64,000 bases of DNA from an uncultured Candidatus Saccharibacteria bacterium (GCA_964385105.1 CAYLMU010000001.1:369936-433935), one strand, 5' to 3'; shown: positions 42,907-61,578, counted from the stretch's first letter. A program made the numbers and translations. Notes: generated from the sequence alone by a model not told the origin.

Positions 42907-42983
42907 CTGGCGGGACCAACGGGGCTCGAACCCGCGACCTCTGCCGTGACAGGGCAGCGCTCTAACCAACTGAGCTATGGCCC
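42907..42983 (-). tRNA. tRNA-Asp (anticodon GTC), CCA encoded
   Basis: Reverse complement GGGGCCATAGCTCAGTTGGTTAGAGCGCTGCCCTGTCACGGCAGAGGTCGCGGGTTCGAGCCCCGTTGGTCCCGCCA. The anticodon loop is CTGTCAC. Confidence 0.85.
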
Positions 42984-43069
42984 CCCGCTTTTTCATTTAC
43001 TAAAGGTGTTCGAATATTAACAAATTGTGTATTTAGCGTCAATAAAATGATAAATGTTATTATGGCAAT

Positions 43070-44821: not shown

Positions 44822-44854
44822 TATTTATTTAAGTTTTAATTATGAGGAGGAAAT

Positions 44855-45415: not shown

Positions 45416-45424
45416 ACTTTAATT

Positions 45425-46318
45425 ATGGCAAGTATATATACCCATATAGCGGACAACAAACGTGACACTTGGTTGATTATGTTTTTGTTTATTGCGATTA
45501 TTTCGGCAATAGGATGGGTTTTTGGTGAAATTTATGCCGGCGACGGTTTGTTTATACTGGGTTTTGCTTTGATATTCTCGGGAATAGCAAGTTTTTTTAG
45601 CTATTACAATTCAGACAAAATAGTTTTGGCGCTTTCTAACGCAAAAAAAGTTACAGAAGCTGAAGCTCCTCAATTGCATGCTTTGGTTGAAAACATGTCT
45701 ATTGCCTCCGGTTTGCCTAAACCCAAAATTTATGTAATTGAGGATTCCGCTATGAATGCTTTTGCCACAGGAAGAGACCCCGAACATGGAGTTATTTGCT
45801 TTACAACCGGAATAATTCAAAACCTTGAAAAGCGCGAACTTGAAGGGGTAATTGCTCATGAAATGTCGCATATAGGAAATTATGATATTAGGCTTATGTC
45901 TATTGTATCTGTACTTGTTGGTTCTATAGCACTTTTGGCAGATTGGTTTACTCACGGCATGTTTTATGGCTCAAGGCGACGTGACTCAAATAGGGGAGGC
46001 GGAATTTTAATGATTGTTGGCCTAGTGCTTATTATTTTAAGCCCGATTATTGCAACATTAATTAAAATGGCAGTTAGTAGAAAACGGGAATACTTGGCTG
46101 ATTCAACGGCTGCAATGATTACAAGATACCCACAGGGGCTGGCAAATGCCTTGCGTAAACTTTCTGAAGATAGGGAAGTGCTTGAGGCCGCAAATGGTGC
46201 CACTGCACACTTATATATATCAAATCCGTTAAAAGGTGGGGGAAGAAGTACGTTGGCAAGTTTATTTAGTACACATCCTCCAATTGAAGAGCGCATTAGA
46301 AGGCTTGAAAGCATGTAG
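45425..46318 (+). CDS. htpX: M48 family zinc metalloprotease HtpX-like
   Basis: HEMSH (HExxH) in the context GVIAHEMSHIGNYD, with 4 TM helices. It is paired with upstream lemA. Confidence 0.85.
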   Translation: MASIYTHIADNKRDTWLIMFLFIAIISAIGWVFGEIYAGDGLFILGFALIFSGIASFFSYYNSDKIVLALSNAKKVTEAEAPQLHALVENMSIASGLPKPKIYVIEDSAMNAFATGRDPEHGVICFTTGIIQNLEKRELEGVIAHEMSHIGNYDIRLMSIVSVLVGSIALLADWFTHGMFYGSRRRDSNRGGGILMIVGLVLIILSPIIATLIKMAVSRKREYLADSTAAMITRYPQGLANALRKLSEDREVLEAANGATAHLYISNPLKGGGRSTLASLFSTHPPIEERIRRLESM

Positions 46319-46338
46319 TTTTTTGATATTCTTACATT

Positions 46339-46644
46339 GTGGCTGAGAACGTAATCACAAAAGAACAAGTTAAAAAAATTGCACAATTGTCAAAACTGGA
46401 GTTAAGTGAGTCTGAAATAGTGAATTTTGCCGAACTATTCACTCAAACACTTAAATATATAAATGTGCTTGATGAATTAAATACTCAGGATTATGAACCT
46501 ACATTTCAGGTAACAGGTTTGATTAACGTATTTATGCAAGAGAATCAAAATAAAGCCACGCTTTCACAAAGTGAAGCATTATCAAATGCTACAAAAGTGA
46601 TAAATAACTTATTTGCTACAGGCGCCGTGTTTGATAGAGTATAA
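46339..46644 (+). CDS. gatC: Asp-tRNA(Asn)/Glu-tRNA(Gln) amidotransferase subunit C
   Basis: ~100-aa helical protein with the ITKEQVKKIAQLSKLELSESE N-terminus typical of GatC. It is immediately upstream of gatA. Confidence 0.8.
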   Translation: MAENVITKEQVKKIAQLSKLELSESEIVNFAELFTQTLKYINVLDELNTQDYEPTFQVTGLINVFMQENQNKATLSQSEALSNATKVINNLFATGAVFDRV

Positions 46645-46645
46645 A

Positions 46646-48100
46646 ATGGAGCTCAATAAATTAACTTTAAAACAAGCTATAGATGGTTTAAAAAATGAAG
46701 AGTTTACATCAGTTGAATTATCAAGAGCTTGTTTAAATCAAATTAAAAAGTTTGATAAAAAGATTAATTCGTTTATAACTGTAATCCCCGAAGACGTGGT
46801 TTTAGCTGAAGCTCAAAAGTCAGATGAAGAAATCAGCAAATTGGGTGAAAATGCCTGGAATGAAAAACCGCTGCTTGGAATACCTTATGCTGCAAAAGAT
46901 AACTTTAGTACAAAAGGAATAAGAACAACCGCAAGTTCAAAAGTTTTAGACAATTATATTCCCCCTTTTGATTCAACGGTTACGTTAAGATTAAAAAATG
47001 CCGGTGCTATTTTGCTTGGCAAAACAAATATGGATGCATTTGCTCACGGATCATCTACTGAAACCTCAGATTATTTTGTAACAAAAAACCCATGGGATAT
47101 AAGTCGAATACCCGGCGGTTCTTCTGGAGGGTCGGCAGCTGCTGTTGCAGCAAATATGTGCATTTTTGCAATTGGTAGTGAAACTGCCGGTAGTATACGC
47201 GGCCCTGCATCTTGGAGCGGAATTACAGGTTTTAAGCCAACTTATGGAAGAGTAAGCAGGTACGGAGTTGTTGCTATGGCATCTTCAACCGATTCCCCTG
47301 GCCCCATGACAAAAACAATAGAAGACAGTGCAATTATTTTAAAAGTTATCGCAGGAAAAGATTCGTTTGATGCAACTACTTCGAGTATTCAAGTTGAGGA
47401 TTATGTAAAGAATCTACAAAATATTGTTGATTTTAAAATGAGTGATGTAAAAATTGGTGTACCAAAATCTTATTTTGAAATTGATATGCAACCCGGTGTG
47501 AAAGAGTTGGTATTGCAGACTACGGAAAAATTTAAAGAATTTGGTGCAAAAATTATTGAAATAGAATTGCTTGATCCAAAATATTCTATTGCCGTGTACA
47601 CAATTTTACAGCGGTCTGAAGTGTCGTCGAATTTGGCAAGATACGATGGTATTCGATACGGCAATGACAGAACCGCATTTGGGTTTGAAGCTAAAAAAAG
47701 AATGATGCTTGGTGCATATGCATTAAGCGCCGGATATTATGATGAGTACTATGCAAAAGCTCAAAAAGTAAGAACAATGATTATTGAAGATTTTAATAAG
47801 GCATTTGAGCAAGTTGACATGATAATTGGGCCTACAATGCCAAATGTTGCAATGAAATTAGGCGAATCGGATGAAAATCCTTTGTTTGGTGAGTTTATAG
47901 ACATGTTGCAGGAACCAAGCTCTATCGCAGGTTTAACAGCTGTAAGCTTGCCGGCCGGATTGAGCGAGGGTTTACCTGTGGGAGTGCAGCTTATCGGTCA
48001 ACAGTTTAGTGAAAATAAATTATTTTGTGCCGGACATGTGTTTCAACAAAATACTGATTTTCACACAAAATTTCCCAGTTTAGAAAATTTGGAGGAATAA
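46646..48100 (+). CDS. gatA: Glu-tRNA(Gln)/Asp-tRNA(Asn) amidotransferase subunit A (amidase signature family)
   Basis: Amidase-signature GGSSGGSAAAVA with the Ser-cisSer-Lys triad context. The start is taken at the Met just after the gatC stop (the ORF track extends to 46613). Confidence 0.9.
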   Translation: MELNKLTLKQAIDGLKNEEFTSVELSRACLNQIKKFDKKINSFITVIPEDVVLAEAQKSDEEISKLGENAWNEKPLLGIPYAAKDNFSTKGIRTTASSKVLDNYIPPFDSTVTLRLKNAGAILLGKTNMDAFAHGSSTETSDYFVTKNPWDISRIPGGSSGGSAAAVAANMCIFAIGSETAGSIRGPASWSGITGFKPTYGRVSRYGVVAMASSTDSPGPMTKTIEDSAIILKVIAGKDSFDATTSSIQVEDYVKNLQNIVDFKMSDVKIGVPKSYFEIDMQPGVKELVLQTTEKFKEFGAKIIEIELLDPKYSIAVYTILQRSEVSSNLARYDGIRYGNDRTAFGFEAKKRMMLGAYALSAGYYDEYYAKAQKVRTMIIEDFNKAFEQVDMIIGPTMPNVAMKLGESDENPLFGEFIDMLQEPSSIAGLTAVSLPAGLSEGLPVGVQLIGQQFSENKLFCAGHVFQQNTDFHTKFPSLENLEE

Positions 48101-48490
48101 ATGGGTTTTTTTAGTAAATTATTTAAAATAAGCAATATCGGTCGGATGACTGTATCGACTCAAACAAAAAGCAGAATACAATCCGACTGGAACCAAATTA
48201 AAATTTTGATTGACGGAGGTTCGCCAAGTCAAATGCGTCAAGCGCTAATAACCGCAGACAAAGCTTTAGACAATGCATTAAGAGATGTTGTTGCAGGAGA
48301 AACAATGGGTGAAAGGTTAAAGTCCGCGTCTAACAAATTTGACAAGGTAACGTACGATAAAATTTGGAGGGCGCATAAAATGAGAAACGCTTTGGTACAT
48401 GAATCAGGGTATGAACCAAGCTACGGAATGCTTAAAAATGCTATTGAAGACTTAAGAAAGGGCTTAAACAAGTTAGGTGTAAATGTTTAA
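48101..48490 (+). CDS. small alpha-helical protein with HEPN-like R-x4-H motif, inserted between gatA and gatB
   Basis: 129 aa. Its start abuts the gatA stop and its end overlaps the gatB start by 8 nt. The RNALVHE motif matches HEPN Rx4-6H, but family membership is unproven. Confidence 0.45.
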   Translation: MGFFSKLFKISNIGRMTVSTQTKSRIQSDWNQIKILIDGGSPSQMRQALITADKALDNALRDVVAGETMGERLKSASNKFDKVTYDKIWRAHKMRNALVHESGYEPSYGMLKNAIEDLRKGLNKLGVNV

Positions 48491-49784
48491 ACTTGTACTT
48501 GGCTTAGAAATACACATACACGTTAAAACATCGCTAAAGATGTTTTGCGGTTGCGATGCTAATATTTATAACGCCGAGCCAAATACACATACATGCCCGG
48601 TTTGCTTGGGTTTACCCGGAGCATTGCCGGTTCCTAATGCTGAAGCTGTTGAAAAAACTCAATTGCTTGGAATGGCTCTAAACAGCAAATTAAATGAAAA
48701 CTCAAGATTTGACCGAAAACACTATTTTTACCCAGATTTGCCTAAAGGTTACCAAATAAGTCAATACAAACAGCCATTATGTGAAGGAGGGTATTTAGAG
48801 TTAGAAAGCGGCAAAAAGATTGAAATCGAACGAATTCACCTTGAAGAAGATACGGCAAAATCATTTCACGAGGGAAATTTTACTTTAATAGATTTTAATA
48901 TGTCGGGAATGCCCTTGGTAGAGCTGGTTACAAAACCGGTTTTTGAATCGGCTGCTGATGCAGGAGAATTTGGTAGGAAATTAAGAGATTTAGTTAGGCT
49001 CATTGGAATAAGTGATGCAGACCTGGAAAAGGGTCAAATGAGAATTGAGCCCAACATCTCGGTGAGAACAGTTGAAATGGCTGAAAAACAGGAATTGCCC
49101 GATTACAAGGTTGAAGTAAAAAACATAAATTCATTCAAATTTATGGAAAGAGCGGTTGAATATGAATTTGAGCGACAAAAGAATTTATTGGAAAAAGGTG
49201 AAAAAGTATTGCAGGAAAATAGAGGATGGAATGAAAACTCAAATCAAACCGTTTCACAGCGAGAAAAAGAAGAAGCACATGATTATAGATATTTTCCTGA
49301 GCCTGATGTACCACCAATGTTTTTTGATGAAGATTATATTAAAGAGCTAAGTGCAAAATTACCTGAATTGCCACATCAGCTAAAAACAAGACTAAAAACT
49401 CAGTATGGCTTAAATGAAAATAATGCGAAATTGTTGTCAGAAAACCCCGGGATTAGTTTATTGAACAATTTTGAAGAAGTTGCTCAAAACACAAATATAG
49501 AGCCGAATAAGGTTGCAAACTTGCTATTAAACAAACCTGAATTCAGAAACATAGAGGTTGAAAAATTTGAACAGCTTGTTAAGGAATCTGAAGAAAAAGT
49601 TGAAGATGATTCTGTTTTAGAAAATGCTGTAGCTGAAGTTTTGAGCGAAAACACAAGTGCAGTTGAAGACTTTAAAAACGGAAAAGAAAGCGCACTACAA
49701 TATTTACTTGGACAGGTAATGAGAAAAACAAAAGGTAAGGCAGATCCGCAAAAGAGTCTTGAAATTATTAAAAAATCACTTTAA
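48483..49784 (+). CDS. gatB: Asp-tRNA(Asn)/Glu-tRNA(Gln) amidotransferase subunit B
   Basis: N-terminus MFKLVLGLEIHIHVKTSLKMFCGC and a C-terminal YqeY-like tail (ALQYLLGQVMRKTKGKADP). Confidence 0.9.
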   Translation: MFKLVLGLEIHIHVKTSLKMFCGCDANIYNAEPNTHTCPVCLGLPGALPVPNAEAVEKTQLLGMALNSKLNENSRFDRKHYFYPDLPKGYQISQYKQPLCEGGYLELESGKKIEIERIHLEEDTAKSFHEGNFTLIDFNMSGMPLVELVTKPVFESAADAGEFGRKLRDLVRLIGISDADLEKGQMRIEPNISVRTVEMAEKQELPDYKVEVKNINSFKFMERAVEYEFERQKNLLEKGEKVLQENRGWNENSNQTVSQREKEEAHDYRYFPEPDVPPMFFDEDYIKELSAKLPELPHQLKTRLKTQYGLNENNAKLLSENPGISLLNNFEEVAQNTNIEPNKVANLLLNKPEFRNIEVEKFEQLVKESEEKVEDDSVLENAVAEVLSENTSAVEDFKNGKESALQYLLGQVMRKTKGKADPQKSLEIIKKSL

Positions 49785-49829
49785 CTCAATGTGCATTTCT
49801 GTAAAAAAGTGTGTATAAAGTTATAATCT

Positions 49830-51686
49830 ATGAGCATGGAGTTAAAGTTTGACCCGAATAAACCTAAATACGAGTATATAACTTCTCATTCTGAGGCGGA
49901 AAAAGTATTTGAGAAATTAAAAGATGAAAAAATGCTTGCGGTTGACGTAGAGGCGAGCAGTCTTGATCCGTTTACCGGTATTTTGTTTTTGGTTCAAATT
50001 GGAACAGCCCACATTAGCTACGTTTTTGATGCAAGAACCGTTTCCTTAAAAGATATTAGCTTGTACAAACAAATCATGGAGGACAATAAAGTAATAAAAC
50101 TTTTGCACAATGCATCTTTTGACTATAAATATTTAAAATTGCATACAGGGGTTGAGCTAAAAAATATATATGACACGATGTTGGCCGAGGGAATTTTAAC
50201 TTCTGGTATGTCGTCTCAAAGAACATCACTTATTGAGACGGTAAAAAGGCACTTGGATGACGGAATTATTGAAAAAGATACTCAAATGTCATTTACCAAA
50301 ATGTCTCCTAATGAGCGCATGACTGAAGATCAGTTAATTTATTCTGCAAAAGACACTTTGGTGTTGTTTCCGTTGTTTGAAATTCAGTCGCCGAAGTTAA
50401 AAAAAGAAAATCTTATAAACATAGCAAAACTTGAATTTGCCGTTGCGCCGGTTGTTGCCGAAATTGAACTAAGAGGTGTGTATTTAAATGCAGAAAAGTG
50501 GCGAGATATTATAAAAAATCTTCAGACCAAACGAGATGCGCTGGCGGCAGAGTTTCAAGAAGCGATTAGGCCTTATTACTCAGTTTCTCAATCGGGTTTA
50601 TTTGGAGGTCAGGCCGATTCAATTAATATGAATAGCCCGGTACAGTTAATGGAATTGTTTAACGGTAAACTGGGATTAAATGTTCCTTCAACTGGTAGTC
50701 AGATATTAACAACAATAAATCATCCGGTAGTAAATTTGCTAAGTCAGTATCGCGGATATGAAAAGCTTATTTCAGCATTTGGAGACAGCGTGCTTGAGAA
50801 AATTAATCCCAAGACCGGTAGAATTCATCCTCACTTTATTCAGTTGCAAACTGCCACAGGAAGATTTGCGTGTGCCAGTCCTAACATACAGCAGATTCCC
50901 AGAAATTCAGAAGAAGCACCTTTTAGAACATGTTTTAATCCGGCTGAAGGGTATAAGCTGGTTGTTTCAGACTATTCTTCATTTGAGATGAGAATTCTGG
51001 CTGAGCTTTCGGGTGATGAAAAAATGATTCATGCTATTAAAGATGATTTGGATATTCATTCATATACAGCTTCATTAATGTTTGATAAGCCGTATTCTGA
51101 TGATTTTAAGAAAAAGTACCCTGATTTAAGACAAATGGCTAAGCCAATCGGGTTTGGTTTAATGTATGGTATGGGTCCGCAAGGTTTGGTTTCATCAATT
51201 AGAACACAGTCGGGTACCGATGTTACGGTTGAGCAAAGCGAAGACCTAATCAACAGGTACTTTAAGTCATATCCAAGTGTTAAGAAATTTTTGGATAATC
51301 AGGCACGAAACGCAGTAAGATTGGGTTATAGCACAACACCTGCCGGAAGAAAAAGATGGTATCAAATACCTGAAAAATCAGACCCCGATTACAGAAGAAA
51401 AATAGGCAAAATTGAACGGGAAGCCAAGAACCACCCGATTCAAGGTACAAATGCAGATGCAATTAAGTTTGCTCTAAACTTTGTTCATCAGAGAATGAAA
51501 AAAGACGGGATTGACGGGGGCATAATTTTGACTGTTCATGACGAAATTGCATGTGAAGTACGTGAAGATCAGGCCGAAGATTTTGCTGAGGTATTGTCAT
51601 ATGAGATGAGACGTGCCGGTGAGCTGTTTTTAAAGACAGTACCTGTTAAATCAGACCCTTTTGTAGGCGATGTATGGGAACATTAG
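49830..51686 (+). CDS. polA: family A DNA polymerase (Klenow-like: 3'-5' exonuclease + polymerase; no 5'-3' exonuclease domain)
   Basis: Exo motifs (LAVDVEASSLDPFTGILFLVQIG), Pol A motif B (RQMAKPIGFGLMYGMGPQGL) and motif C (ILTVHDEI). 618 aa. Confidence 0.85.
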   Translation: MSMELKFDPNKPKYEYITSHSEAEKVFEKLKDEKMLAVDVEASSLDPFTGILFLVQIGTAHISYVFDARTVSLKDISLYKQIMEDNKVIKLLHNASFDYKYLKLHTGVELKNIYDTMLAEGILTSGMSSQRTSLIETVKRHLDDGIIEKDTQMSFTKMSPNERMTEDQLIYSAKDTLVLFPLFEIQSPKLKKENLINIAKLEFAVAPVVAEIELRGVYLNAEKWRDIIKNLQTKRDALAAEFQEAIRPYYSVSQSGLFGGQADSINMNSPVQLMELFNGKLGLNVPSTGSQILTTINHPVVNLLSQYRGYEKLISAFGDSVLEKINPKTGRIHPHFIQLQTATGRFACASPNIQQIPRNSEEAPFRTCFNPAEGYKLVVSDYSSFEMRILAELSGDEKMIHAIKDDLDIHSYTASLMFDKPYSDDFKKKYPDLRQMAKPIGFGLMYGMGPQGLVSSIRTQSGTDVTVEQSEDLINRYFKSYPSVKKFLDNQARNAVRLGYSTTPAGRKRWYQIPEKSDPDYRRKIGKIEREAKNHPIQGTNADAIKFALNFVHQRMKKDGIDGGIILTVHDEIACEVREDQAEDFAEVLSYEMRRAGELFLKTVPVKSDPFVGDVWEH

Positions 51687-51776
51687 CGCAGTCTATGGGT
51701 TATGTTCGGTAAAAGTGTTTATAAATCAGCTTATCAGACGGGTTGCAAGAGTGCTAATTTGTGGTAATATCTATTC

Positions 51777-53870
51777 ATGGCTGTAATCTGTCACAAATGC
51801 GGTCAAAGACCCGCAGTAATATCCGTAAATAAAATTGTAGATGGTAAGCAGGTGTATATGGCACTCTGTGAAGTGTGTTATACCGAATTGCAAAAAGAAA
51901 CATCATCTACTTCAAAGCTTGATAAATTCGGTCGTGATTTAACTAAAATGGCAAAAGAAGGCAAGCTTGACCCGGTAATTGGCCGTGAAGATGAAATAGA
52001 GCGAGTTGTACATATACTTTCAAGACGAACTAAAAATAATCCTGTGTTAATTGGAGACCCCGGTGTTGGAAAAACCGCAATTGCTGAAGGTTTGGCTCAA
52101 CGCATTATAAAAGGGCTAGTACCTGAACCTTTAAGAAATAAAAGAGTATTTGCACTTGATCTAGCTTTAGTTGTTGCAGGAACCACTCACCGCGGAATGT
52201 TTGAAAAAAGATTAAAAGACATTTTGGATGAAATAATTGATTCTCAAGGTCAAATAATATTGTTTTTGGACGAGTTACACACTGTTGTAGGTGCCGGTTC
52301 GGCCGAAGGCTCAATGGATGCGGCAAATATATTAAAACCGTCACTTTCACGTGGAGAATTGCAAATGGTTGGTGCGACAACTATTGATGAATACAGAAGA
52401 TATATTGAAAAAGATGCCGCGCTTGAGAGAAGATTTCAACCGATTGTTGTAAATGAACCATCGCAGGAAGAAACTATAGAAATTATAGAAGGACTTCGTG
52501 AAGAATATGAAAAACATCATCAGGTAAAAATTTCAGATGAAGCAATAAAAGCATCGGTAAAGATGTCTGATAGATATATTAGTGACCGATTTTTGCCGGA
52601 TAAAGCAATAGACCTGGTCGATGAGGCTTCTGCATTGGTAAGACTTTCACAGGTTGAAGAGCCTGAAAACTTAAAACAAGTTGAAGAAAATTTAAAGAAC
52701 ATTAAAGAACAGCTTAGAAATGAGGATTTGAGTGAAGAACAGGCAAAAGAGCTTGAAGAACAGCGTGACGATTTGGAAAAAGTTAAAGAAGAGCTTATAG
52801 ATATTTGGACAAAAACAAAGCTTGAAAGAATTCCCACAGTTCAAGAAGATGATGTTCTAAAAGTTGTGTCACGTGCAAGTGGCATTCCGCTTGAAAGACT
52901 AAGCGTTGCTGAAAAAGAGAAATTGCTGAATTTAGAAAGCAAGATACATGAACGTATTGTAGGACAGAATGAAGCGGTTGAAATGGTTTCTGAGGCCATA
53001 AGGCGTGCAAGGGCAGGTTTAAAAGATCCAAAGAGGCCTATTGGGTCATTTTTGTTCTTAGGACCAACAGGTATTGGTAAAACCGAACTTTCAAAAGCAC
53101 TGGCCGAAGTATTATACGGTGACGAAGACATGTTGGTAAGACTTGATATGAGTGAATACATGGAAAAACATACTGTAAGTAAACTTATTGGAGCACCTCC
53201 GGGGTACGTGGGATTTGAAAGAGGCGGAAACTTGACTGACATTGTTAGAAAAAAGCCATTTTCTATAGTATTGCTTGATGAAGTTGAAAAAGCTCATCCT
53301 GATGTATTTAATACTTTATTACAAATTATGGAAGACGGCCGACTTACTGACAGCAAAGGTAGAACAGTAGACTTTAAGAACACAATTATAATTATGACAT
53401 CAAACGTAGGGTCTGAGTGGTTACAAAGATCTGACATTGGATTTGGTATGGCCGGAGACAAAAAGGTTAGAGGTAAAAAAGAAGACTTTGAACAAAAAGT
53501 ATTTAAAGCTTTGCGTGAAAGTTTCAGACCTGAATTTTTGAATAGAATAGATGAGATTGTGATATTTGGCACATTGACCAAAGAAGATATTATGGAAATC
53601 GCAAATAGATTGTTGGCTCATACTCAAAAACGTCTTGCAGAACAAGAAATTGGAGTTGTATTTGAACAGCCGGCAAAAGAGTTGATTGTAGAAAAAGGTT
53701 ATGACGAAGAATTTGGTGCAAGGCCATTGCGCAGAGTTATACAAAAAGAAGTAGACAACAAGCTTTCTGACAAAATAATTGCAGGTGAAATTCAAGCCGG
53801 CGATACAGTTAGTGTGAGTGCCGAGAAGGGTGAGATTATGTTAAAGGTTGAATCTAGCGTTACGGTTTAA
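51777..53870 (+). CDS. ClpC/ClpA-like double-AAA+ unfoldase with N-terminal C4 zinc ribbon in place of Clp_N repeats
   Basis: Two Walker A motifs ([18 protein letters not shown]), a UVR-like coiled-coil M-domain, and the N-terminal CHKCG...CEVC. Confidence 0.8.
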
Positions 53871-53896
53871 GTTATAGTTAATTTATAGGCAATTCC

Positions 53897-53925
53897 TTGA
53901 AATTTATGCGGTAAATAGGTATACT
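53897..53925 (+). promoter_or_regulatory. sigma70-like promoter upstream of rplS (TTGAAA-17-TATACT)
   Basis: The -35 is TTGAAA at 53897-53902 and the -10 is TATACT at 53920-53925, with a 17-bp spacer, 12 bp before the rplS start. Confidence 0.5.
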
Positions 53926-53936
53926 CACTACTGCAC

Positions 53937-54302
53937 ATGGCAGAAAATCAAGACCAAGTACAAGAAAATACATCTACAGCTATAGCCGAAGTAAAAGAAG
54001 TTCCTGACTTTAGAGCCGGTGACACGATTGAAGTTCATTACAGAATTACTGAAGGTGACAAAACCAGAATTCAGCCGTATGAAGGTGTTGTTATATCAAA
54101 AAAAGGTGAAGGTGTTTCAAAAACTTTTACTGTTAGAAAAATTGGTGCAGACGGAATTGGTGTAGAAAGAATATTTCCATTGTATTCTCCAAACATTGAA
54201 AAACTTTTGGTTAAGAAAAAGGCCAAAGTACGAAGAGCAAAGCTTTATTACCTAAGAGAAAAGAAGGGTAGAGCTGCCGTTAGACTTAAAGAACTTAAAT
54301 AA
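53937..54302 (+). CDS. rplS: 50S ribosomal protein L19
   Basis: Conserved bL19 core ([35 protein letters not shown]...FTVRKI...[11 protein letters not shown]). Confidence 0.9.
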
Positions 54303-54345
54303 TTTGCCTGTTTACGATGTTGTACGTGAATAGGCTTTGTTGTTA

Positions 54346-54372
54346 TCCTGAGTAAAATCAGGACTTTTTTTT
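54346..54372 (+). terminator. intrinsic terminator after rplS
   Basis: TCCTGA-gtaaaa-TCAGGA hairpin followed by a T8 run. Confidence 0.7.
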
Positions 54373-54456
54373 GAAAAATTGCTAAAATTAACAGGTTTTA
54401 CGGTTTTCATTCTCAAAAAGAAGGCTGTATTACTTAGGATTTTTTATGACTTTTGA

Positions 54457-54531
54457 GGGGGCGTAGCTCAGTGGTAGAGCATCTGGCTTTTAACCAGAGT
54501 GTCGTGAGTTCGATCCTCACCGCCCTCACCA
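54457..54531 (+). tRNA. tRNA-Lys (anticodon TTT), CCA encoded
   Basis: GGGGGCGTAGCTCAGTGGTAGAGCATCTGGCTTTTAACCAGAGTGTCGTGAGTTCGATCCTCACCGCCCTCACCA. The anticodon loop is CTTTTAA. Confidence 0.9.
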
Positions 54532-54571
54532 TGAAAAAACGGTAGTGCCGAAGGTACTAGCGATTTTTCAT
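54531..54571. terminator. bidirectional terminator-like hairpin directly after tRNA-Lys
   Basis: ATGAAAAA ... TAGTGCC-gaa-GGTACTA ... TTTTTCAT: an A-tract, a GC-containing stem and a T-tract. Confidence 0.45.
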
Positions 54572-54655
54572 TATGAAAGTAGGATCGAATGCCGCAGCTG
54601 CGACCTTTAATTATTTACTTTACTGAAAATAGGAATTAACATATATTATCTATAT

Positions 54656-55264
54656 ATGTATAGCGTCAAACAAATAATCCAAGGATATGCCAAAAAAATA
54701 GATAATGGCTGGTTAGCATCATCAAGCACTATACTAATTCAAGGCTCTGAAAAAAACATATTAGTAGATTCGGGGATAAATAAACTATTACTATTGGAAA
54801 CTTTAGAAAAAGAAGAACTATCAACTGACGATATAGATATTATATTTATGACTCATTTTCACCCAGATCATATTTTTCTTGTTGGTTTATTTGATAATGC
54901 GATAGCTTTAGATGGAGAAACAATCTATACAAAAGATTTAGAAGAAGAATATATTGGAAATATACCAGGTACTAATATTAAATTATTACCAACTCCCGGA
55001 CACGCAAATGAACACACCTCATTAATTGTTGAAAATGAAAACGGTGAAGTCATAGTTGTTGCTCAAGATGTATTTTGGTGGACCGATCAGGAAGAACAAA
55101 TAGTTAAAGACTATGATGCATTAATAAACAAAGAGGATCCCTTTATGGTTGATTTTTCGGCATTGAAAGAAAGTAGAAGAAAGGTTTTAGAAATTGCTGA
55201 TTATATAATACCTGGACATGGGAAGATGTTTGAGAATTTGCACAAAGGTACAATTCATGATTAA
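54656..55264 (+). CDS. MBL-fold metallo-hydrolase
   Basis: HxHxDH motif (THFHPDH) and downstream His/Asp ligands. First gene of the low-GC block. Confidence 0.75.
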   Translation: MYSVKQIIQGYAKKIDNGWLASSSTILIQGSEKNILVDSGINKLLLLETLEKEELSTDDIDIIFMTHFHPDHIFLVGLFDNAIALDGETIYTKDLEEEYIGNIPGTNIKLLPTPGHANEHTSLIVENENGEVIVVAQDVFWWTDQEEQIVKDYDALINKEDPFMVDFSALKESRRKVLEIADYIIPGHGKMFENLHKGTIHD

Positions 55265-55862
55265 AGCAATGAGTTTCGACTTAGATGGTGTGTTTTTTAC
55301 ACAACAAAGCTTTAAGGATTTTAAGAAACACCTACCTAAAAGAGTTGAAGATAAAGAGACAGTTGATTATGTTTTTCATAACTCACAAGAAATGCTTGAT
55401 TTTAAGTCAGGAAAAATATCTGAAGAAGAATTCTGGAACTTTGCAACTAAAACTCTACAAATTGAGGGTGACTTTGATGATATATGTTCTGTGTTTAGAG
55501 AAGTTTATACCATTAACAATGATGTTGCGAATTATGTAAGAGAAGTTAAAATCGCAGGTTATAAAACCTGTATTTGTTCTAACAATTTTGAAACCAGGGT
55601 TAGAGAAGTGGATAACGAATGGGGTTTCTTAGATTTGTTTGATGTAAAGATATTTTCGTATCAAGTTGGATTTCTTAAACCGGATAAAAGAATATTTCAA
55701 GCTCTTATTGATGCATCAGAAGTAAAACCAGGAGAAATAGTATATTCCGATGATGGTGAGGATAAAATACAAGGAGCTTTAGAATTAGGAATAAATGCTT
55801 TTGTTTATGAAAACTTTGAACAGTTTAAAAATAAGTTGACTAGCTTAGGAGTAAAAACATGA
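55257..55862 (+). CDS. HAD-superfamily hydrolase (subfamily IA-like)
   Basis: Motif I FDLDGVFF (DxDG), motif III K, motif IV DDGED. The start overlaps the MBL stop by 8 nt (the ORF track begins at 55218). Confidence 0.7.
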   Translation: MIKAMSFDLDGVFFTQQSFKDFKKHLPKRVEDKETVDYVFHNSQEMLDFKSGKISEEEFWNFATKTLQIEGDFDDICSVFREVYTINNDVANYVREVKIAGYKTCICSNNFETRVREVDNEWGFLDLFDVKIFSYQVGFLKPDKRIFQALIDASEVKPGEIVYSDDGEDKIQGALELGINAFVYENFEQFKNKLTSLGVKT

Positions 55863-56527
55863 ATTTGATAGACAAGTGGAATAAAAGCCATCTGGGAATA
55901 CCTAAAGATAAGAGTGTTTCAGCTTATGCTTTAGAAAAAGAGGCAGAATTTCCAAGAAATAGTACAGTCTTAGATTTAGGAGGAGGTACTGGTGTTGACG
56001 CAGTATATTTCGCTGAAAAAGGACACAATGTAACTCTAGCAGATATATCACCTTTAGCATTAGAAGTTGCAAAAGAAAAAGCTAAAAATAAAGATGTAAA
56101 CATAAAAACTGAGCAGGTAAATATAGGTAAGGATCCTTTACCGTTTGAAGACAGTACTTTCGATATAGTTTACTCCCGTCTTGTCTTACATTACTTCGAT
56201 AAAAGCACTACATCAGCTATCTTTAGTGAAATTAACAGAATATTAAAGAAAAGCGGTATTGCCTACATAACAATAAAATCACCTGATGATGAAAAAGAAA
56301 TGGAATACCTGAAATCAAATGCCTCAGAAATAGAAGAAAATGTATTTTTAGAAGAAGGTGACATAAAAAGTAGATATTCTATTGAACAATTAGAGAATAT
56401 TCTAAAAGAAGCTGGTATTGAGAACTTTGAAGTCATAGAATATGAAGAAGATTTACATGGCAGAGTTGATAAAGTTAAGTCAGGCAATAAAGTTTTATTA
56501 TTAAATGAAATATCATGGAAGAAATAA
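55859..56527 (+). CDS. class I SAM-dependent methyltransferase
   Basis: Motif I VLDLGGGTGVDAVYFAEKGHNVTLADIS and a post-I acidic residue. It overlaps HAD by 4 nt. Confidence 0.8.
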   Translation: MNLIDKWNKSHLGIPKDKSVSAYALEKEAEFPRNSTVLDLGGGTGVDAVYFAEKGHNVTLADISPLALEVAKEKAKNKDVNIKTEQVNIGKDPLPFEDSTFDIVYSRLVLHYFDKSTTSAIFSEINRILKKSGIAYITIKSPDDEKEMEYLKSNASEIEENVFLEEGDIKSRYSIEQLENILKEAGIENFEVIEYEEDLHGRVDKVKSGNKVLLLNEISWKK

Positions 56528-56922
56528 AAGACTGTATTTTTTGTAAACTAATCAAAGAAGGAAAGTTAGAAGAAAGAACTATACTCAAGTCTGAGAAATT
56601 TATAGCTTTCTTAGATGCACATCCATTAGTTGAGGGTCATACATTAGTTATACCAGTAGAACATAAAGAATGGGTTTGGGAAGTCAGTAACTTTGAAGAT
56701 TACAATAATTTTTCAAAGGAAGTAGCCAATCTTCTTAGAGAAAGACTAAACATAGCCAAGATTGATGTCCTTGTATCAGGCGGTACTGTTCCACATGCTC
56801 ATATACATCTTTTACCATCAATCGAGGGTAGATGGGCTAAAATAAAGGATTATCTAAGAGAGCAAAGAAAAGAAGTAAAAGAGCCACCGAGTGAAGAAAC
56901 AGTACAAAAACTAAGACAATGA
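56515..56922 (+). CDS. HIT (histidine triad) family nucleotide hydrolase/transferase
   Basis: CIFCKLI N-terminus and the histidine triad HAHIHLLP. It overlaps the methyltransferase by 13 nt. Confidence 0.8.
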   Translation: MEEIKDCIFCKLIKEGKLEERTILKSEKFIAFLDAHPLVEGHTLVIPVEHKEWVWEVSNFEDYNNFSKEVANLLRERLNIAKIDVLVSGGTVPHAHIHLLPSIEGRWAKIKDYLREQRKEVKEPPSEETVQKLRQ

Positions 56923-56931
56923 CCTATATAT

Positions 56932-57366
56932 ATGTCCGAAGATGTAACTATTAGAAAAATGGAAAAAACCGATTTACAAGCTGTTTCCCAGCTCTTTAGA
57001 GAAGTATTTAACAGCGAAGGTGAAAATTGGTCAGATAAAACAGCTACAAGCCATGTAGAGCAAAACTTCTTTGGCGATAGTCATTGGGTAGCAGAAAAAG
57101 GTAATAAAATAGTTGGATTTTTAATGGGTATTGTATTAACAAGAGAAAAGGGTGAAGAATTATTTATAGACTCTGTGGTAGTAGATAAGTCAGTACAGGG
57201 TAATGGGATCGGTAAAGAGCTTTGGAGTAGAGCAGAGATGTTTGTAAAAGAAAACAAATTAAAGGGTATTAGATTGTTAGCAAATCCACAGTTTGACTCA
57301 TATAACTGGTATAAAAAAATGGGCTACAACGAAAGTGAGTGGATAGAGCTTTATAGAGAGTTTTAA
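56932..57366 (+). CDS. GNAT family N-acetyltransferase
   Basis: Motif A region VVVDKSVQGNGIGKELW (Q/RxxGxG/A) and the GNAT fold length. Confidence 0.75.
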   Translation: MSEDVTIRKMEKTDLQAVSQLFREVFNSEGENWSDKTATSHVEQNFFGDSHWVAEKGNKIVGFLMGIVLTREKGEELFIDSVVVDKSVQGNGIGKELWSRAEMFVKENKLKGIRLLANPQFDSYNWYKKMGYNESEWIELYREF

Positions 57367-57398
57367 GTTTTTTTTATCCGCTAAAACTAATTAAAACT

Positions 57399-57430
57399 CA
57401 GCCAATTCAGAATCACACTTTTCTGATTCT
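57399..57430 (+). terminator. weak terminator-like hairpin after the GNAT gene
   Basis: GAATCA-cacttttc-TGATTC followed by a short T-rich stretch. The stem is AT-rich, so this is weak. Confidence 0.25.
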
Positions 57431-57474
57431 TTATCAATTCATATATTTAATATAAGTTAAGTTATAATGACTTT

Positions 57475-57762
57475 ATGTCTCTTGACGAACTTCAGGAACA
57501 AGTAAAAAAACTTTATGAAAAAAACGGTGGGAATACGCCTTCGGAGTTGTTACTTATTGCGATGCAGGAAGAATTAGGTGAAATAAGTGCAAGGTTTTTA
57601 GCTGAACATCCAGATTACAAAAAAGACATTGGTCATACACACCCACTTAATGAAGAAATCGGCGACTTAATCACTTTAATTTTAGCTTTTTGTAATAGGA
57701 ATGGTATAAATGCATCTGAATGGGTTGAGAATACGATTAATAAAAGAAGCGGTCAGGGTTAG
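57475..57762 (+). CDS. MazG-like nucleotide pyrophosphohydrolase (small all-alpha NTP-PPase)
   Basis: 95 aa with the EExxE-type motif QEELGEISARFLAEH and the helical NTP-PPase fold length. Confidence 0.55.
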   Translation: MSLDELQEQVKKLYEKNGGNTPSELLLIAMQEELGEISARFLAEHPDYKKDIGHTHPLNEEIGDLITLILAFCNRNGINASEWVENTINKRSGQG

Positions 57763-57888
57763 TCAAGTCAGGTCGTCCAATTATATTGATGTATAAACAT
57801 ATGAAATTAGTAGGGTATAATAAATATTATGCCGATTCCAAGTCATATCTTTGATAATGTGTTAAATTAACCTCACAAAATGCAATCA

Positions 57889-57993
57889 AAAACCCAAAAA
57901 TGTCCAAACTGCGGAAATTCGATGAACTCAATTAAAGGCGCAACAAAAGCAATATGTAAAAACTGTGGGCTAAAAGACGGGTGTTGTTATTGA
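57889..57993 (+). CDS. 34-aa zinc-ribbon mini-protein (MQSKTQKCPNCGNSMNSIKGATKAICKNCGLKDGCCY)
   Basis: ATG-to-TGA ORF below the ORF-track cutoff, with CxxC-x14-CxxC. It sits in the 235-bp gap before the convergent SpoU gene. Confidence 0.3.
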   Translation, partial: KTQKCPNCGNSMNSIKGATKAICKNCGLKDGCCY

Positions 57994-57997
57994 GATT

Positions 57998-58708
57998 TTA
58001 TTTATTAATGTAGCTCTTATACAACACAACCCCAACCGCCATAGACAAATTCAGTGAATCAATACTATTTTCATGCTCAATGTGCACACTTTCGCCTATA
58101 TTTAAAAACGAATCATCAAGACCGCTGCTTTCAGGGCCAAAAACCAGCGAAAAAGGTTTGGCAAAAGTTGTGTTTTTGAGTTTTTTGTTGCCATTAAGCA
58201 TAAACGTGTAAATAGAATTTTGTGGAAATTTTTGCTGATAGCTTTTAAAACTGTCGAAGTATTCAAAATTAATATCAAAAAGTGAACCCATTGATGCCCG
58301 GATTGTTTTTGGGTCAAATACATCTACACCCGGTCTTATTACAATTAAGTTATAAACCCCAAAACCTGACATTGTTCTAATAATTGTTCCTAAATTACCC
58401 GGATCGGTAGGATTAACCAAAACAAGATGATTTTCGCCATTTTTTACATTACTATCGTATTTTTTAAAAAACCCTGCTGCGTAGGTGTTTTCTTTGACCG
58501 AAACCTTTTTTAAGTTTTTTAAACTATATTCAAATTCAATGTTTTTTTCGGTGCAAAGCTTTTTTATTTCTTGAACGCCTTTGTTGGCATCACTTTTTGG
58601 ATTTAAAACAACTTTTATTATTTCGCCTGGTTTTTTATTAATTAGTTCAAGTGTTGGGTAAACTCCAAGTGTATATGTATAGTTTAATTTTTTTGTATAT
58701 TTTTTCAT
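57998..58708 (-). CDS. SpoU/TrmH family RNA 2'-O-methyltransferase
   Basis: SPOUT motifs (LVLVNPTDPGNLGTIIRTMSGFG ... FGPESSGL ... LNLSMAVGVVLY). Confidence 0.8.
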   Translation of the reverse strand: MKKYTKKLNYTYTLGVYPTLELINKKPGEIIKVVLNPKSDANKGVQEIKKLCTEKNIEFEYSLKNLKKVSVKENTYAAGFFKKYDSNVKNGENHLVLVNPTDPGNLGTIIRTMSGFGVYNLIVIRPGVDVFDPKTIRASMGSLFDINFEYFDSFKSYQQKFPQNSIYTFMLNGNKKLKNTTFAKPFSLVFGPESSGLDDSFLNIGESVHIEHENSIDSLNLSMAVGVVLYKSYINK

Positions 58709-58766
58709 ATTAGCTTTGGTAGCGGTTTCATAATATTATGTTTTTGTTATTACAGCAATGATATAT

Positions 58767-58796
58767 TTGACAAATTAAAAAAGTAAGTAGTAAGAT
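58767..58796 (+). promoter_or_regulatory. candidate promoter (TTGACA-18-TAAGAT) for the leader/ATP-grasp transcript
   Basis: Perfect -35 TTGACA at 58767-58772 and a -10-like TAAGAT at 58791-58796. The leader ORF ATG is about 17 nt downstream. Confidence 0.35.
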
Positions 58797-58812
58797 TAAG
58801 CATTAAATAATT

Positions 58813-58905
58813 ATGAAGTCACATAATTTATTAAAAGTTAATAGTTTAAGTAAAGTTTTTGGTCTCTTTATTATGTTCACGACAGAGAGGGCCGGAGGCA
58901 TGTAG
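58813..58905 (+). CDS. 30-codon leader ORF (MKSHNLLKVNSLSKVFGLFIMFTTERAGGM)
   Basis: ATG-to-TAG ORF whose last codons (GCC GGA GGC ATG TAG) are strand 1 of the antiterminator. There is no strong SD, so translation is unproven. Confidence 0.3.
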   Translation: MKSHNLLKVNSLSKVFGLFIMFTTERAGGM

Positions 58906-58966
58906 CTTAAGTTACTAACTTTTAAAAATACTAAGCCTCCGGGTAAAACCGGGGGCTTTTTGTTTT
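58892..58966 (+). promoter_or_regulatory. mutually exclusive antiterminator/terminator (attenuator or riboswitch expression platform) upstream of the ATP-grasp gene
   Basis: Seg1 CCGGAGGC (58892-58899) is perfectly complementary to seg2 GCCTCCGG (58935-58942). Seg2 also pairs with seg3 CCGGGGGC (58949-58956) as an 8-bp stem, followed by TTTTTGTTTT (58957-58966). Confidence 0.55.
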
Positions 58967-58982
58967 GCACGTTAAAAAGTTA

Positions 58983-59041
58983 ATTGATAGAGCCGTTAAG
59001 AATTTCAAATTTATTTTGGAGTTTTTTGTGGCTCTATTGAT
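58983..59041 (+). promoter_or_regulatory. 12-bp perfect inverted repeat ATTGATAGAGCC-N35-GGCTCTATTGAT immediately upstream of the ATP-grasp RBS
   Basis: Seen directly. The right arm ends 11 nt before the AAGGAG SD (59052-59057). Function unknown. Confidence 0.4.
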
Positions 59042-59064
59042 AAATAACTAAAAGGAGATTTGAG

Positions 59065-60357
59065 ATGAGTAAGGTTGTATCGCTTTTACCTGAGTATGAA
59101 GAAGAAATACTGAATTTAAGTGGGTATACATTATATTCTTTTCGGAGTTTACTTGGAGGTGATAATCAGAGTTACACTTTGCTGCCGCAAACGAGTTTTG
59201 GAGTAAACTTACCAGAAATTGAGTACCTACACGAATTAGGTTTTTGCGGCCCTGTTGAAAGAGCTTTGCATTTGCCGGGAGTGTCTATTATGCCTCAACA
59301 AAGAATCTTTGAGCCTCAAAATTCAGCTTTGCTGGAAAAGTTACGCAAAGACGGTGTAGGTATTGAGTGTGTTGATTTGCGAAGTAATAATGCAAGGTTG
59401 GCAGTAGAACTTGGAGTTATGACTAAAGATTTTGCACGGCTTCAAACTTTACTAACTGAAACAGCAGATGACAAGCTTTGGTTGCGTACAACAGCAGAAA
59501 GTTTGGGTTTAAGTCATCATTTGGTGCCCGGGGGTTGTGCAAGGTCATTAAGTGAGTTGAAAGAACTTTTTGACTGCTATATTCAACTAACAGGGCAAGT
59601 GGTATTTTTGGATAACCCAAGATTAGGAGGTGGTGTAGGATTTCATAAAGTTAAGAGTTGGGAACAATTGCTTAAACTTTTAAGTAATTTGGAATGGGGT
59701 GAGAAATTTCCACATGAGGTTTTGTTAACTTCTTACGTAGAAAAATGGTCAAGCCCTTCGATTCAATGGGATTGCAGATCTGCAACAGGACCGGAACTTG
59801 TTGGAATCACAATGCAACTCTTAAACGGGGATTTTGACCACGCAGGAAATTCCATTCCTTCAGGGCTTAGCAAAGAGCAGGAAAACGCCATAATTAACAT
59901 TACACGACCATTTGCGCAACATCTGCATGCTATTGGTTTTAGATGGGTTGCGGGTTTTGACCTGATTCATTCAAAACTTGAAAATCCTACACCAAATGGA
60001 ACCAATTTTTACGTGCAAGAATGTAATCCGAGGCATGTTGCTCCGTTTTATGCCCGCAAAGTGCAAAAACAACTGCAACATACAGGCCCAGCTTTAATGT
60101 TGAATGTGAAGCCAAGTATACCGACAACTCCAAAGGCAGTGCATAACTTACTAAAAACCAAAGGTTTGTTGTTTGGTAGATGTACTGAAGGTTGCGTAGT
60201 ACCTTATATGACCACATCCTCACAGATGAAAAATCCTAAGTTTGCGGTAGTAGTGTTGGGATCTACTCTTCAAGAGGCAAAAAGCACTGCGACGGCGGTA
60301 AAAAGGTCATTTGGCGACGAATCAAACGTTATGTACAGCTTTGAAGTTTATCAATAG
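59065..60357 (+). CDS. ATP-grasp family ligase (carboxylate-amine/thiol ligase), uncharacterised
   Basis: C-terminal ATP-grasp Mg/ATP motif GFDLIHSKLE...NFYVQECNPR (compare D-x-...-E-x-N-P-R of CPSase/biotin carboxylase/RimK) and a ~200-aa N-terminal pre-ATP-grasp region. Preceded by a strong SD. Confidence 0.6.
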   Translation: MSKVVSLLPEYEEEILNLSGYTLYSFRSLLGGDNQSYTLLPQTSFGVNLPEIEYLHELGFCGPVERALHLPGVSIMPQQRIFEPQNSALLEKLRKDGVGIECVDLRSNNARLAVELGVMTKDFARLQTLLTETADDKLWLRTTAESLGLSHHLVPGGCARSLSELKELFDCYIQLTGQVVFLDNPRLGGGVGFHKVKSWEQLLKLLSNLEWGEKFPHEVLLTSYVEKWSSPSIQWDCRSATGPELVGITMQLLNGDFDHAGNSIPSGLSKEQENAIINITRPFAQHLHAIGFRWVAGFDLIHSKLENPTPNGTNFYVQECNPRHVAPFYARKVQKQLQHTGPALMLNVKPSIPTTPKAVHNLLKTKGLLFGRCTEGCVVPYMTTSSQMKNPKFAVVVLGSTLQEAKSTATAVKRSFGDESNVMYSFEVYQ

Positions 60358-60442
60358 AGTAATGGAAGTTTTGCAAGCACAGCTTTATGTATTTAGGTTG
60401 TGCTTGCTCTCTTTAAAGTTAATTGTTTAAGATTAGGAAAAT

Positions 60443-61165
60443 ATGAAAAAAATATTATTAATTCAATTTCGTGATGATGTGACACAAGAGCATGAAGTAA
60501 AATGCTTTTTAAACAAGCTTAAAATAAACGAATCTGAATTAAAGGTTTTAAATGCAATATTAGATAATTTTGAATATGAGCCTGAAGTTTTATTACAGGA
60601 TGTTGGTGCTGTGATCTTTGGCGGGTCAGGGCAGTATGATTTGTCACTAAATCAAGAACCAATAATTAAAGCTTTTAATAACACAAAAAAACTTGTTGAT
60701 TACATTTTAAAAAATGACTTTCCTACATTGGGAATTTGTTTTGGGCATCAGCTGCTGTCGCAAAGACTGGGTGGTGTGGTTTTGCCTAATGAAAATATGC
60801 GTGAAACAGGCACTTTTGAAATTAGGTTGAATAATGAAGGAAAATCAGACAAACTATTTGGTGATTTAAAAGAAACCTTTTTAGTACAAGAAGGTCATAA
60901 AGAAAGCGTTACAAATATTCCGTCTGACGTGGTTTTGCTTGGTAGTAGTGAAAGGTGTGAAACTCAAATATTCCGCTACAAAAATAATATATATACAGCT
61001 CAATTTCATCCTGAGTTAACAAAAGAAGACATAAAATATAGATTGAGCCTATTTCCCACGTACTCGCAAGGAAAAAACATTGAAGAAGCCACAAAAGACA
61101 TAAAAGAGACTCCCGAAGCTGAAAAAGTATTGCAAAAATTTGTGAGCCTATATTTGAGTTCGTAA
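60443..61165 (+). CDS. class I glutamine amidotransferase-like (GATase1 / peptidase C26 gamma-glutamyl hydrolase-like) protein
   Basis: Catalytic Cys in GICFGHQLL and a downstream His (AQFHPEL), the conserved GATase1 triad spacing. It is a stand-alone 240-aa protein with no synthase partner domain. Confidence 0.8.
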   Translation: MKKILLIQFRDDVTQEHEVKCFLNKLKINESELKVLNAILDNFEYEPEVLLQDVGAVIFGGSGQYDLSLNQEPIIKAFNNTKKLVDYILKNDFPTLGICFGHQLLSQRLGGVVLPNENMRETGTFEIRLNNEGKSDKLFGDLKETFLVQEGHKESVTNIPSDVVLLGSSERCETQIFRYKNNIYTAQFHPELTKEDIKYRLSLFPTYSQGKNIEEATKDIKETPEAEKVLQKFVSLYLSS

Positions 61166-61191
61166 ATGAACTATAATCTATAGTAAAGGTT

Positions 61192-61578
61192 ATGGATAAT
61201 AAAGAGAACAAAAAACCACAAGACAATTCTCAGAATAATCAGCAGAATAATGGTGATATTGACTATAGAGACCCGCCAAAACCAAAAAAACAGCCTAAAA
61301 TAGATAAGATGGGGCTTGAAGTAACAAAAAATCCAAGAGATGTTTCAGGTGCGGGCAAAAAAGTTGCTATGCTTTTGCTAATTTTAGGGTCATTGGCACT
61401 ACTTTTTGGCTCTGCATACGTTATTTTCACGACTATGAACAAAAACATGCAAAATAATACAGAACTAGATAATCAGGTTAACAATGTAATAGATGAAAAT
61501 AATGCTCACCAGTCAACTCAATCACCTGAGATTTATTCCGTTTTTGGTGAATTACTAAGAAAATATGTCTCCTTTTAA
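61192..61578 (+). CDS. hypothetical membrane protein (Asn/Gln-rich N-terminus, one TM helix)
   Basis: 128-aa ORF with no recognised motif. Confidence 0.4.
   Translation: MDNKENKKPQDNSQNNQQNNGDIDYRDPPKPKKQPKIDKMGLEVTKNPRDVSGAGKKVAMLLLILGSLALLFGSAYVIFTTMNKNMQNNTELDNQVNNVIDENNAHQSTQSPEIYSVFGELLRKYVSF

Follow-up and report, generated by a model that had tools for sequence, protein, structure and literature searches.

The 64,000-nucleotide stretch of DNA analysed here (GCA_964385105.1 CAYLMU010000001.1:369936-433935; hereafter, the window) carries six short enzyme genes immediately downstream of a gene for tRNA-Lys(UUU), and the question raised by this locus is what holds the six genes together. 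In an earlier note on the same DNA, the block was read as an AT-rich island at the 3' side of the tRNA, and its tight packing was taken to imply one pathway of nucleotide handling. The reading favoured here, with moderate confidence, is that the block occupies, as cargo, a slot for variable accessory genes immediately 3' of tRNA-Lys(UUU) in a small, gene-dense WWE3-type genome, and that it forms a co-transcribed assortment of enzymes acting independently.

A variable slot behind tRNA-Lys

The named matches to the ClpC protein of the window at 70–74% identity were WWE3 bacteria, together with one Saccharimonadales and one Patescibacteria-group record. The closest ClpC relatives were found on three contigs, namely, L176 (91% identical), L178 (77%), and L179 (76%). 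An upstream gene order of approximately 11 kb, PolX-LemA-M48-gatC-gatA-x-gatB-polA-clpC-rplS, was common to the window and these contigs, and in all three contigs rplS was followed by tRNA-Lys(UUU). On comparing the window with L176 using blastn, the two were collinear over 42948–54532, after which DNA similarity was absent until 58032, inside the gene of a SpoU-family RNA methyltransferase. The counterpart of 54533–58031 in L176 was located at 11585–12825 of that contig. The contents found behind the tRNA, including open reading frames (ORFs) given by length in amino acids (aa), were as follows.

Window: six genes (3.5 kb) after the tRNA, then SpoU (minus strand)
L176 (ClpC 91%): similarity stops at 54532 and returns at 58032; 1.24 kb carrying two ORFs (268 and 69 aa), without Pfam match; then SpoU (minus strand)
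L178 (ClpC 77%): similarity stops at 54532; ORF of 199 aa and an M29 peptidase on the opposite strand
L179 (ClpC 76%): similarity stops at 54537; ORF of 389 aa, then the SpoU orthologue, inverted

The four related genomes showed four unrelated contents after the tRNA, with SpoU closing the slot in two of them. The window SpoU shared 68% identity with its orthologue in L176, which is placed and oriented alike, and 47% with that in L179. The slot proteins of the three relatives, mostly without Pfam match, were unrelated to the block and to one another, and no homologue of a block protein was found within 10 kb of the locus in L176, L178, or L179. As similarity was lost at the tRNA end in three relatives and the contents beyond it differed, it was concluded that the block is variable DNA that fills a variable slot, and that synteny breaks at the end of tRNA-Lys. 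The arrangement is no assembly chimera, since 53846–59601, including both slot junctions, was recovered at 100% identity in an independent second (Logan) assembly of run SRR9016296.

The proposed tRNA-3' island was thus borne out in part: the DNA 3' of tRNA-Lys is variable and lineage-specific, as judged from the three relatives, but it is not a classic integrase island. No integrase was present among the surrounding genes, as had been stated earlier, nor was a transposase or recombinase, and no recombinase gene was found among all ORFs assigned or scanned over 43–64 kb. Moreover, the far boundary showed no direct (att) repeat of the 3' end of the tRNA. The tRNA-3'-like remnant suspected at 54572–54600 was a chance 9-nucleotide (nt) inverted match to TTCGATCCT, as 100 of 100 shuffled sequences scored at least as well, and the best tRNA match in 54532–58100 was likewise no better than 99–100 of 100 shuffles.

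Genomic islands next to tRNA genes, and chromosomal hotspots of accessory genes, are a general concept. Similar to such islands, the block begins no more than a few bases from where a tRNA gene ends, is flanked by core genes, differs in cargo from close relatives, and is somewhat AT-rich; of the traits of integrase-type tRNA islands, the 3' tRNA position and the absence from close relatives were present. Unlike them, the block is without an integrase, a direct repeat of the tRNA 3' end, or mobility genes, is only 3.5 kb long, has typical codon usage, and encodes generic enzymes instead of adaptive or mobile functions.

The conserved core PolX-LemA-M48-gatCAB-polA-clpC-rplS-tRNA-Lys ends at the tRNA, and the slot starts there. 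In the proposed mechanism, the cargo would consist of small, generic, individually acting enzymes, with the HIT protein as a Hint-type phosphoramidase, perhaps together with a 37-aa zinc-ribbon ORF described below. Enzymes of these kinds, MazG, Hint-type HIT, and HAD phosphatases among them, are commonly classed under house-cleaning, metabolite repair, or detoxification, and the cargo may serve roles of this kind. As neither an integrase nor an att repeat was found, the slot would most likely be refilled either by recombination that uses its conserved flanks or by stepwise gain and loss of genes. If this reading is right, the locus is one more case of flexible DNA adjacent to a tRNA gene, here in a reduced candidate-phylum genome without visible mobility machinery.

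Gene content and composition of the block

All six block ORFs were co-directional downstream of tRNA-Lys(UUU). The features of the slot and its edges are listed below; the start codon of the HAD gene was taken from the gene call of the independent Logan assembly.

54457–54531, plus strand: tRNA-Lys(UUU) (ARAGORN and Rfam), terminal conserved element of the syntenic core and left edge of the variable slot
54526–54576, plus strand: strong hairpin, likely a terminator or processing signal (−21.1 kcal/mol, z −6.3; equalled by 0 of 200 shuffles)
54533–58031, no strand: variable slot, 3.5 kb, without DNA similarity to the closest relative L176 (blastn)
54656–55264, plus strand: MBL-fold metallo-hydrolase, 202 aa, MBLAC1/TM0894-like (PF00753, 4.5e-13; HxHxDH)
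55257–55862, plus strand: HAD-IA phosphatase, 201 aa (PF00702, 1.1e-14; DxDG); 8-nt overlap with the MBL gene
55859–56527, plus strand: class I SAM methyltransferase, 222 aa (Methyltransf_25, 1e-21); 4-nt overlap with the HAD gene
56515–56922, plus strand: Hint-type HIT protein, 135 aa (PF01230, 1.8e-12; HAHIHLL); 13-nt overlap with the methyltransferase gene
56932–57366, plus strand: GNAT N-acetyltransferase, 144 aa (PF00583, 6e-16); 9-nt gap after the HIT gene
57475–57762, plus strand: MazG-like all-alpha NTP pyrophosphohydrolase, 95 aa (PF03819, approximately 1e-3); 108-nt gap after the GNAT gene
57880–57993, plus strand: candidate seventh gene, a 37-aa zinc-ribbon ORF (CxxC...CxxC) absent from the gene calls (ORF list and sequence; weak zinc-ribbon Pfam matches)
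57998–58708, minus strand: SpoU-family RNA 2'-O-methyltransferase, conserved right flank (PF00588, 2.2e-32)

The six enzyme families named earlier for the block were all assigned using Pfam, the MazG-like one through its homologues and motif, and none of the six proteins reached an NCBIfam equivalog cut-off. The MBL protein matched PF00753 with 50 bits (cut-off 22.7), and its metal ligands H67, H69, D71, H72, H116, D138, and H188 were invariant in 44 homologues. Its structural model (pLDDT 96), with the alpha-beta/beta-alpha fold of the MBL superfamily, was best matched in the PDB by human MBLAC1 (4v0h; TM 0.78, 29% identity), then by TM0894, lactonases, and phosphotriesterases, and its best sequence match was also of the MBLAC1/TM0894 type (2.1e-10). 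Human MBLAC1 is a histone pre-mRNA 3' endonuclease (PMC6303110). The block protein shares a compact fold with a full metal site with MBLAC1 and TM0894 (1ztc); unlike MBLAC1, to which the match is distant, it belongs to a prokaryotic family of approximately 195 aa without a conserved neighbour.

The HAD protein, with an FDLDG motif, scored 55.8 bits against PF00702 (cut-off 26.4) and 34 bits against TIGR01509 (cut-off 29.4), and its 77 bits against TIGR02247 remained under the cut-off of 125. Its nearest types were YihX (PDB, 3.5e-9), a sugar-phosphate phosphatase, and the N-terminal phosphatase of sEH. The methyltransferase matched PF13649 with 77.8 bits (cut-off 27), and its PDB matches were generic. 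The HIT protein matched PF01230 with 48.2 bits (cut-off 21.5), carried the canonical HAHIHLL triad and an N-terminal His in EGHTLVIP, and was nearest in the PDB to the Hit-like proteins 3l7x and 1y23. In the case of the GNAT protein, 59.2 bits against PF00583 (cut-off 20.7) were accompanied by generic, weak equivalog matches.

The MazG-like protein alone reached 19.8 bits against PF03819, under the Pfam cut-off of 22. An exhaustive search gave 50 cluster representatives as relatives. Among 46 aligned sequences (the query and 45 homologues), 23 matched PF03819, and there were also 6 MazG-like and 5 PRA-PH matches; the EExxE...D motif (E32, E33, E36, and D64) was nearly invariant. Therefore, judged from its homologues and this conserved motif, the protein is assigned to the all-alpha NTP pyrophosphohydrolase superfamily. 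It also matched the MazG-like PHROG (1.5e-4). Its single-sequence model was poor (pLDDT 66), and the top match of the fold search, YpjD at E 0.14, was uninformative.

The 37-aa ORF at 57880–57993, MQSKTQKCPNCGNSMNSIKGATKAICKNCGLKDGCCY, is separated from the MazG-like gene by 117 nt, and a promoter-like TAAACA-16-TATAAT stands ahead of it at 57794–57821. A fused zinc ribbon was found in three distant homologues of the MazG-like protein (P0332, P0338, and P0339). These features hint that the ORF may be real and linked to the MazG-like protein.

On comparing the block with the known house-cleaning enzymes MazG, Hint-type HIT, and HAD, the motifs EExxE...D, HxHxHxx, and DxDG were intact and the proteins were likewise small and single-domain; unlike those enzymes, they were without equivalog-level assignment. 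Genes for MazG, Hint-type HIT, and HAD phosphatases are not known to share an operon with MBL, methyltransferase, and GNAT genes. The claim that every member is linked to nucleotides held for the HIT and MazG-like proteins and failed for the MBL, HAD, methyltransferase, and GNAT proteins, the nearest types of which were MBLAC1/TM0894, YihX/sEH, or generic.

The window had a GC content of 35.9%, and the block at 54656–57762 had 32.1%, as compared with a mean of 36.0% (standard deviation (sd) 1.4) for windows of the same size. Only 1% of these windows were as low, every one of them overlapping the block region. The dip, described earlier as about 30% against 38–40%, is therefore real and within the lowest 1%, but its size is approximately 4 points, not 8–10. 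Single block genes ranged from 31.0 to 35.8% GC. The GC content at third codon positions (GC3) was 0.206–0.219 for the first four block genes and 0.28–0.30 for the last two, the gene mean being 0.270 (sd 0.037); the lowest value of all genes was that of rplS, 0.197. Synonymous codon choice in the block was typical for the window, or more than typical (z +0.1 to +2.4), and the SpoU stretch, which is conserved in relatives, had 31.3% GC. As codon choice was typical, GC3 was lowest in rplS, and the conserved SpoU was AT-rich, it was concluded that composition does not support the foreign origin for which it had been cited. For annotation, a modest GC dip does not amount to foreign origin.

The same typical codon choice and the equally AT-rich SpoU, together with the absence of both integrase and att site, would suit an explanation in which the region is ancestral native DNA, the six genes once being part of the core of the lineage and later disappearing or being exchanged in L176, L178, and L179. 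Vertical descent would also fit a methyltransferase orthologue, 59% identical, in a WWE3-like genome with 70% ClpC identity, but in that genome, a 994-kb contig, the gene sits by reverse-transcriptase and Toprim genes, away from rplS. In addition, four contents in four genomes call for repeated events in either direction, and identity to the best matches was just 68% for the MBL and 60% for the methyltransferase protein, in a database that also contains a relative with a 91% identical ClpC. An ancestral origin is regarded as rather unlikely, with an appreciable chance left to it.

In a separate observation on base composition, the syntenic core of L176 (1–11584) had 42.6% GC as compared with 36.5% in the window at 42948–54532, a marked AT shift despite the 91% ClpC identity.

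Gene packing, transcription, and gene neighbourhoods

Situated at the border of the variable slot, the strong hairpin at 54526–54576 has its start in the final six bases of tRNA-Lys, and a terminator-like site was called at 54543–54559. In the relatives, the hairpin sequence was not observed behind the tRNA. This structure probably ends the rplS-tRNA-Lys unit, as a terminator or processing signal. A promoter-like site was located at 54619–54647, after the hairpin and ahead of the MBL gene, and the first five genes, MBL to GNAT, are probably carried on one transcript from it. The weak hairpin reported after the GNAT gene was no better than shuffled sequence (z −1.6). The Rfam scan returned four tRNAs only, with no riboswitch or other known RNA in the intergenic gaps.

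The start/stop overlaps of 4–13 nt described for the block were confirmed at three junctions, where 8, 4, and 13 nt were measured; the remaining junctions were gaps of 9 and 108 nt. Overlaps were found in 3 of 5 junctions inside the block and in 9 of 41 co-directional junctions outside it (Fisher p = 0.10), and 23 of these 41 were separated by 20 nt or less. As overlaps were not significantly enriched in the block, one pathway cannot be inferred from tight coupling. Genes are closely packed throughout this genome, and the overlapping starts would reflect this compaction, not a shared pathway; for annotation, close packing on a shared strand does not define one.

The MBL family, of approximately 195 aa, is well conserved, with 307 matches at 46–68% identity in bacterial and archaeal metagenome bins, including Bathyarchaeia and Woesearchaeota records at 53–54%. 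A total of 82 loci of MBL homologues at 46–64% identity were gathered, of which 70 were non-redundant, and in none of the 70 was the block, or any three-gene part of it, present. The 119 immediate neighbours of the MBL homologues matched 124 Pfam families, the commonest being nitroreductase (5), methyltransferase (3–4), HAD (3), GatB (3), HD (3), and HIT (2). Similarly, homologues of the methyltransferase (50–60% identity) were found in six differing contexts, and the block was present in none of them. The gene stood alone in the first and fifth contexts, after a TrhO-like rhodanese in the second, between mnmA and pheS in the third, and near an HD-domain YfbR-like protein in the fourth. The sixth, on the 994-kb contig (JGI sample 3300071358), was a run of Lipase-x-HAD(201 aa)-PNPOx-x-HIT(137 aa)-MTase. 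In this survey, seeded with the MBL and methyltransferase proteins, the block order thus did not recur, apart from this one partial and reordered HAD...HIT-MTase run, which is the sole substantial echo of the block.

Several points weigh against reading the block as slot cargo of independent enzymes. The data show replacement, which may reflect gain here or loss elsewhere, not that the window genome gained the block. The slot comparison rests on three relatives, each within 10 kb of the locus, and the neighbourhood surveys were seeded only with the MBL and methyltransferase families. The uniformly low GC3 of the first four genes, approximately 0.21, fits their joint arrival. On the 994-kb contig (ClpC 70%, methyltransferase 59%), the HAD-PNPOx-x-HIT-MTase genes are co-directional, with a 4-nt overlap between HIT and MTase, and reordered relative to the block. 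Contig L082 carries a MazG-like gene (60% identical) and, 0.5 kb downstream of it, an MBL gene (64%), the two being separated by a DUF5680 gene, and a distant HIT gene directly follows an MBL gene in one other lineage (L111 and L134). These partial echoes leave a small probability for sub-modules; in the gene orders compared, the six-gene set is no conserved unit.

Much of this also bears on the proposal that the six genes are a single operon or pathway that modifies, salvages, or detoxifies a nucleotide or nucleoside-like molecule. Five of the genes lie on one strand, joined by overlaps or a 9-nt gap, but the overlap enrichment was not significant. The HIT and MazG-like families act on nucleotides, but the MBL, HAD, methyltransferase, and GNAT proteins have no specific nucleotide link. 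The HAD, HIT, and orthologous methyltransferase genes occur within 3 kb in one WWE3-like relative, the MazG-like and MBL genes are neighbours in L082, and GC3 is uniform in the first four genes; against this, the block or a three-gene part of it was absent from 70 of 70 MBL loci and from 5 of 6 methyltransferase contexts, and the lone partial match was reordered, with extra genes. With set and order absent from these loci and contexts and packing genome-wide, the claim of one pathway was not upheld, and it is considered unlikely.

More doubtful still is a broader proposal, that WWE3 and other Patescibacteria keep integrase-free, tRNA-anchored slots that swap house-cleaning cassettes, and that a recurrent HIT-methyltransferase(-HAD) module, and perhaps an MBL and MazG-like (plus zinc-ribbon) pair, would be an undescribed unit of nucleotide or metabolite repair or modification. 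If true, such a unit could matter for organisms that scavenge nucleotides from hosts. The wider value of the locus depends on whether the partial HIT-MTase-HAD and MBL-MazG associations prove recurrent, in which case they would point to a small module for repair or modification.

Two further observations were made on these neighbourhoods. The run on the 994-kb contig has as its neighbours a reverse transcriptase (RVT_1, 708 aa) and a Toprim protein (680 aa) on the opposite strand, which suggests another flexible region. In the unrelated contigs L094, L128, L159, L161, and L163, gatA is followed within approximately 2–4 kb by an MBL homologue, which apparently comes directly behind gatB; the window has a distance of 4.9 kb from the gat genes to the MBL gene downstream. 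This proximity is probably a coincidence. The MBL family is otherwise without a conserved neighbour.

Defence, resistance, and other observations in the window

A role in anti-phage defence or counter-defence, through nucleotide depletion or Apyc1-like degradation of cyclic nucleotides, had also been raised in part by the earlier note, and is very improbable. The location of the block in a variable slot is consistent with such a role, and PADLOC returned weak matches of HIT to ThsC (1.3e-5), of the methyltransferase domain to mad2, and of MBL to RTasMBL/LmuA (approximately 1e-5); however, these matches were without exception partial, reflecting superfamily folds at the level of domains, and did not add up to a system. 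The MBL family showed a weak precomputed match to PF23023 (Apyc1), which did not appear in the Pfam scan at E 0.01, and the MBL model best fitted MBLAC1 and TM0894, with no Apyc1 structure in its top 50 fold matches. No relatives were found in viral contigs, where MBL, methyltransferase, and HIT were scanned, and the block DNA was unmatched in phage and plasmid collections using blastn. The PHROGs comparison gave superfamily-level matches only for block proteins. The defence module was accordingly set aside.

Acetylation of processed microcin C by GNAT enzymes is a known route of resistance, and the HIT and GNAT genes of the block are adjacent. A resistance pair against peptide-nucleotide (microcin C-like) antibiotics is nevertheless just as improbable as a defence role. 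HIT hydrolases of the MccH clade, with a tested member from a Parcubacteria genome, confer microcin C resistance, and the hallmarks of the clade are ExxxxxHxHxKxx and a lost N-terminal His (PMC7157772), but the block protein, which shares the HIT fold, has HxHxH instead of HxHxK and retains the third His (HAHIHLL) and the N-terminal His (EGHTLVIP). An MccH-type identity of the block HIT protein is excluded by the published HxHxK clade motif (PMC7157772).

Beyond the slot, a second stretch, 58979–61533, was unmatched by L176 at the DNA level. Located in it were a 430-aa protein without Pfam match (weak ATP-grasp LdmS match, 3e-4), the gene of which has 40.3% GC, tied highest among window genes, a glutamine amidotransferase of class I (PRK07567, 4.7e-42), and a 128-aa ORF with a weak protein counterpart in L176 (31% identity, 2e-13). 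This stretch may be another accessory insert, possibly with a ligase/amidotransferase pair.

The ClpC gene at 51777–53870 was without the usual long N-domain and opened with a CxxC...CxxC segment instead. Residues 4–41 weakly matched the zinc-finger N-terminus of McsA (NF053706, 2.8e-4), and ClpC homologues of similar length, approximately 700 aa, were common in WWE3/Patescibacteria. A 659-aa gene was also located on the minus strand at 14.4–16.3 kb.

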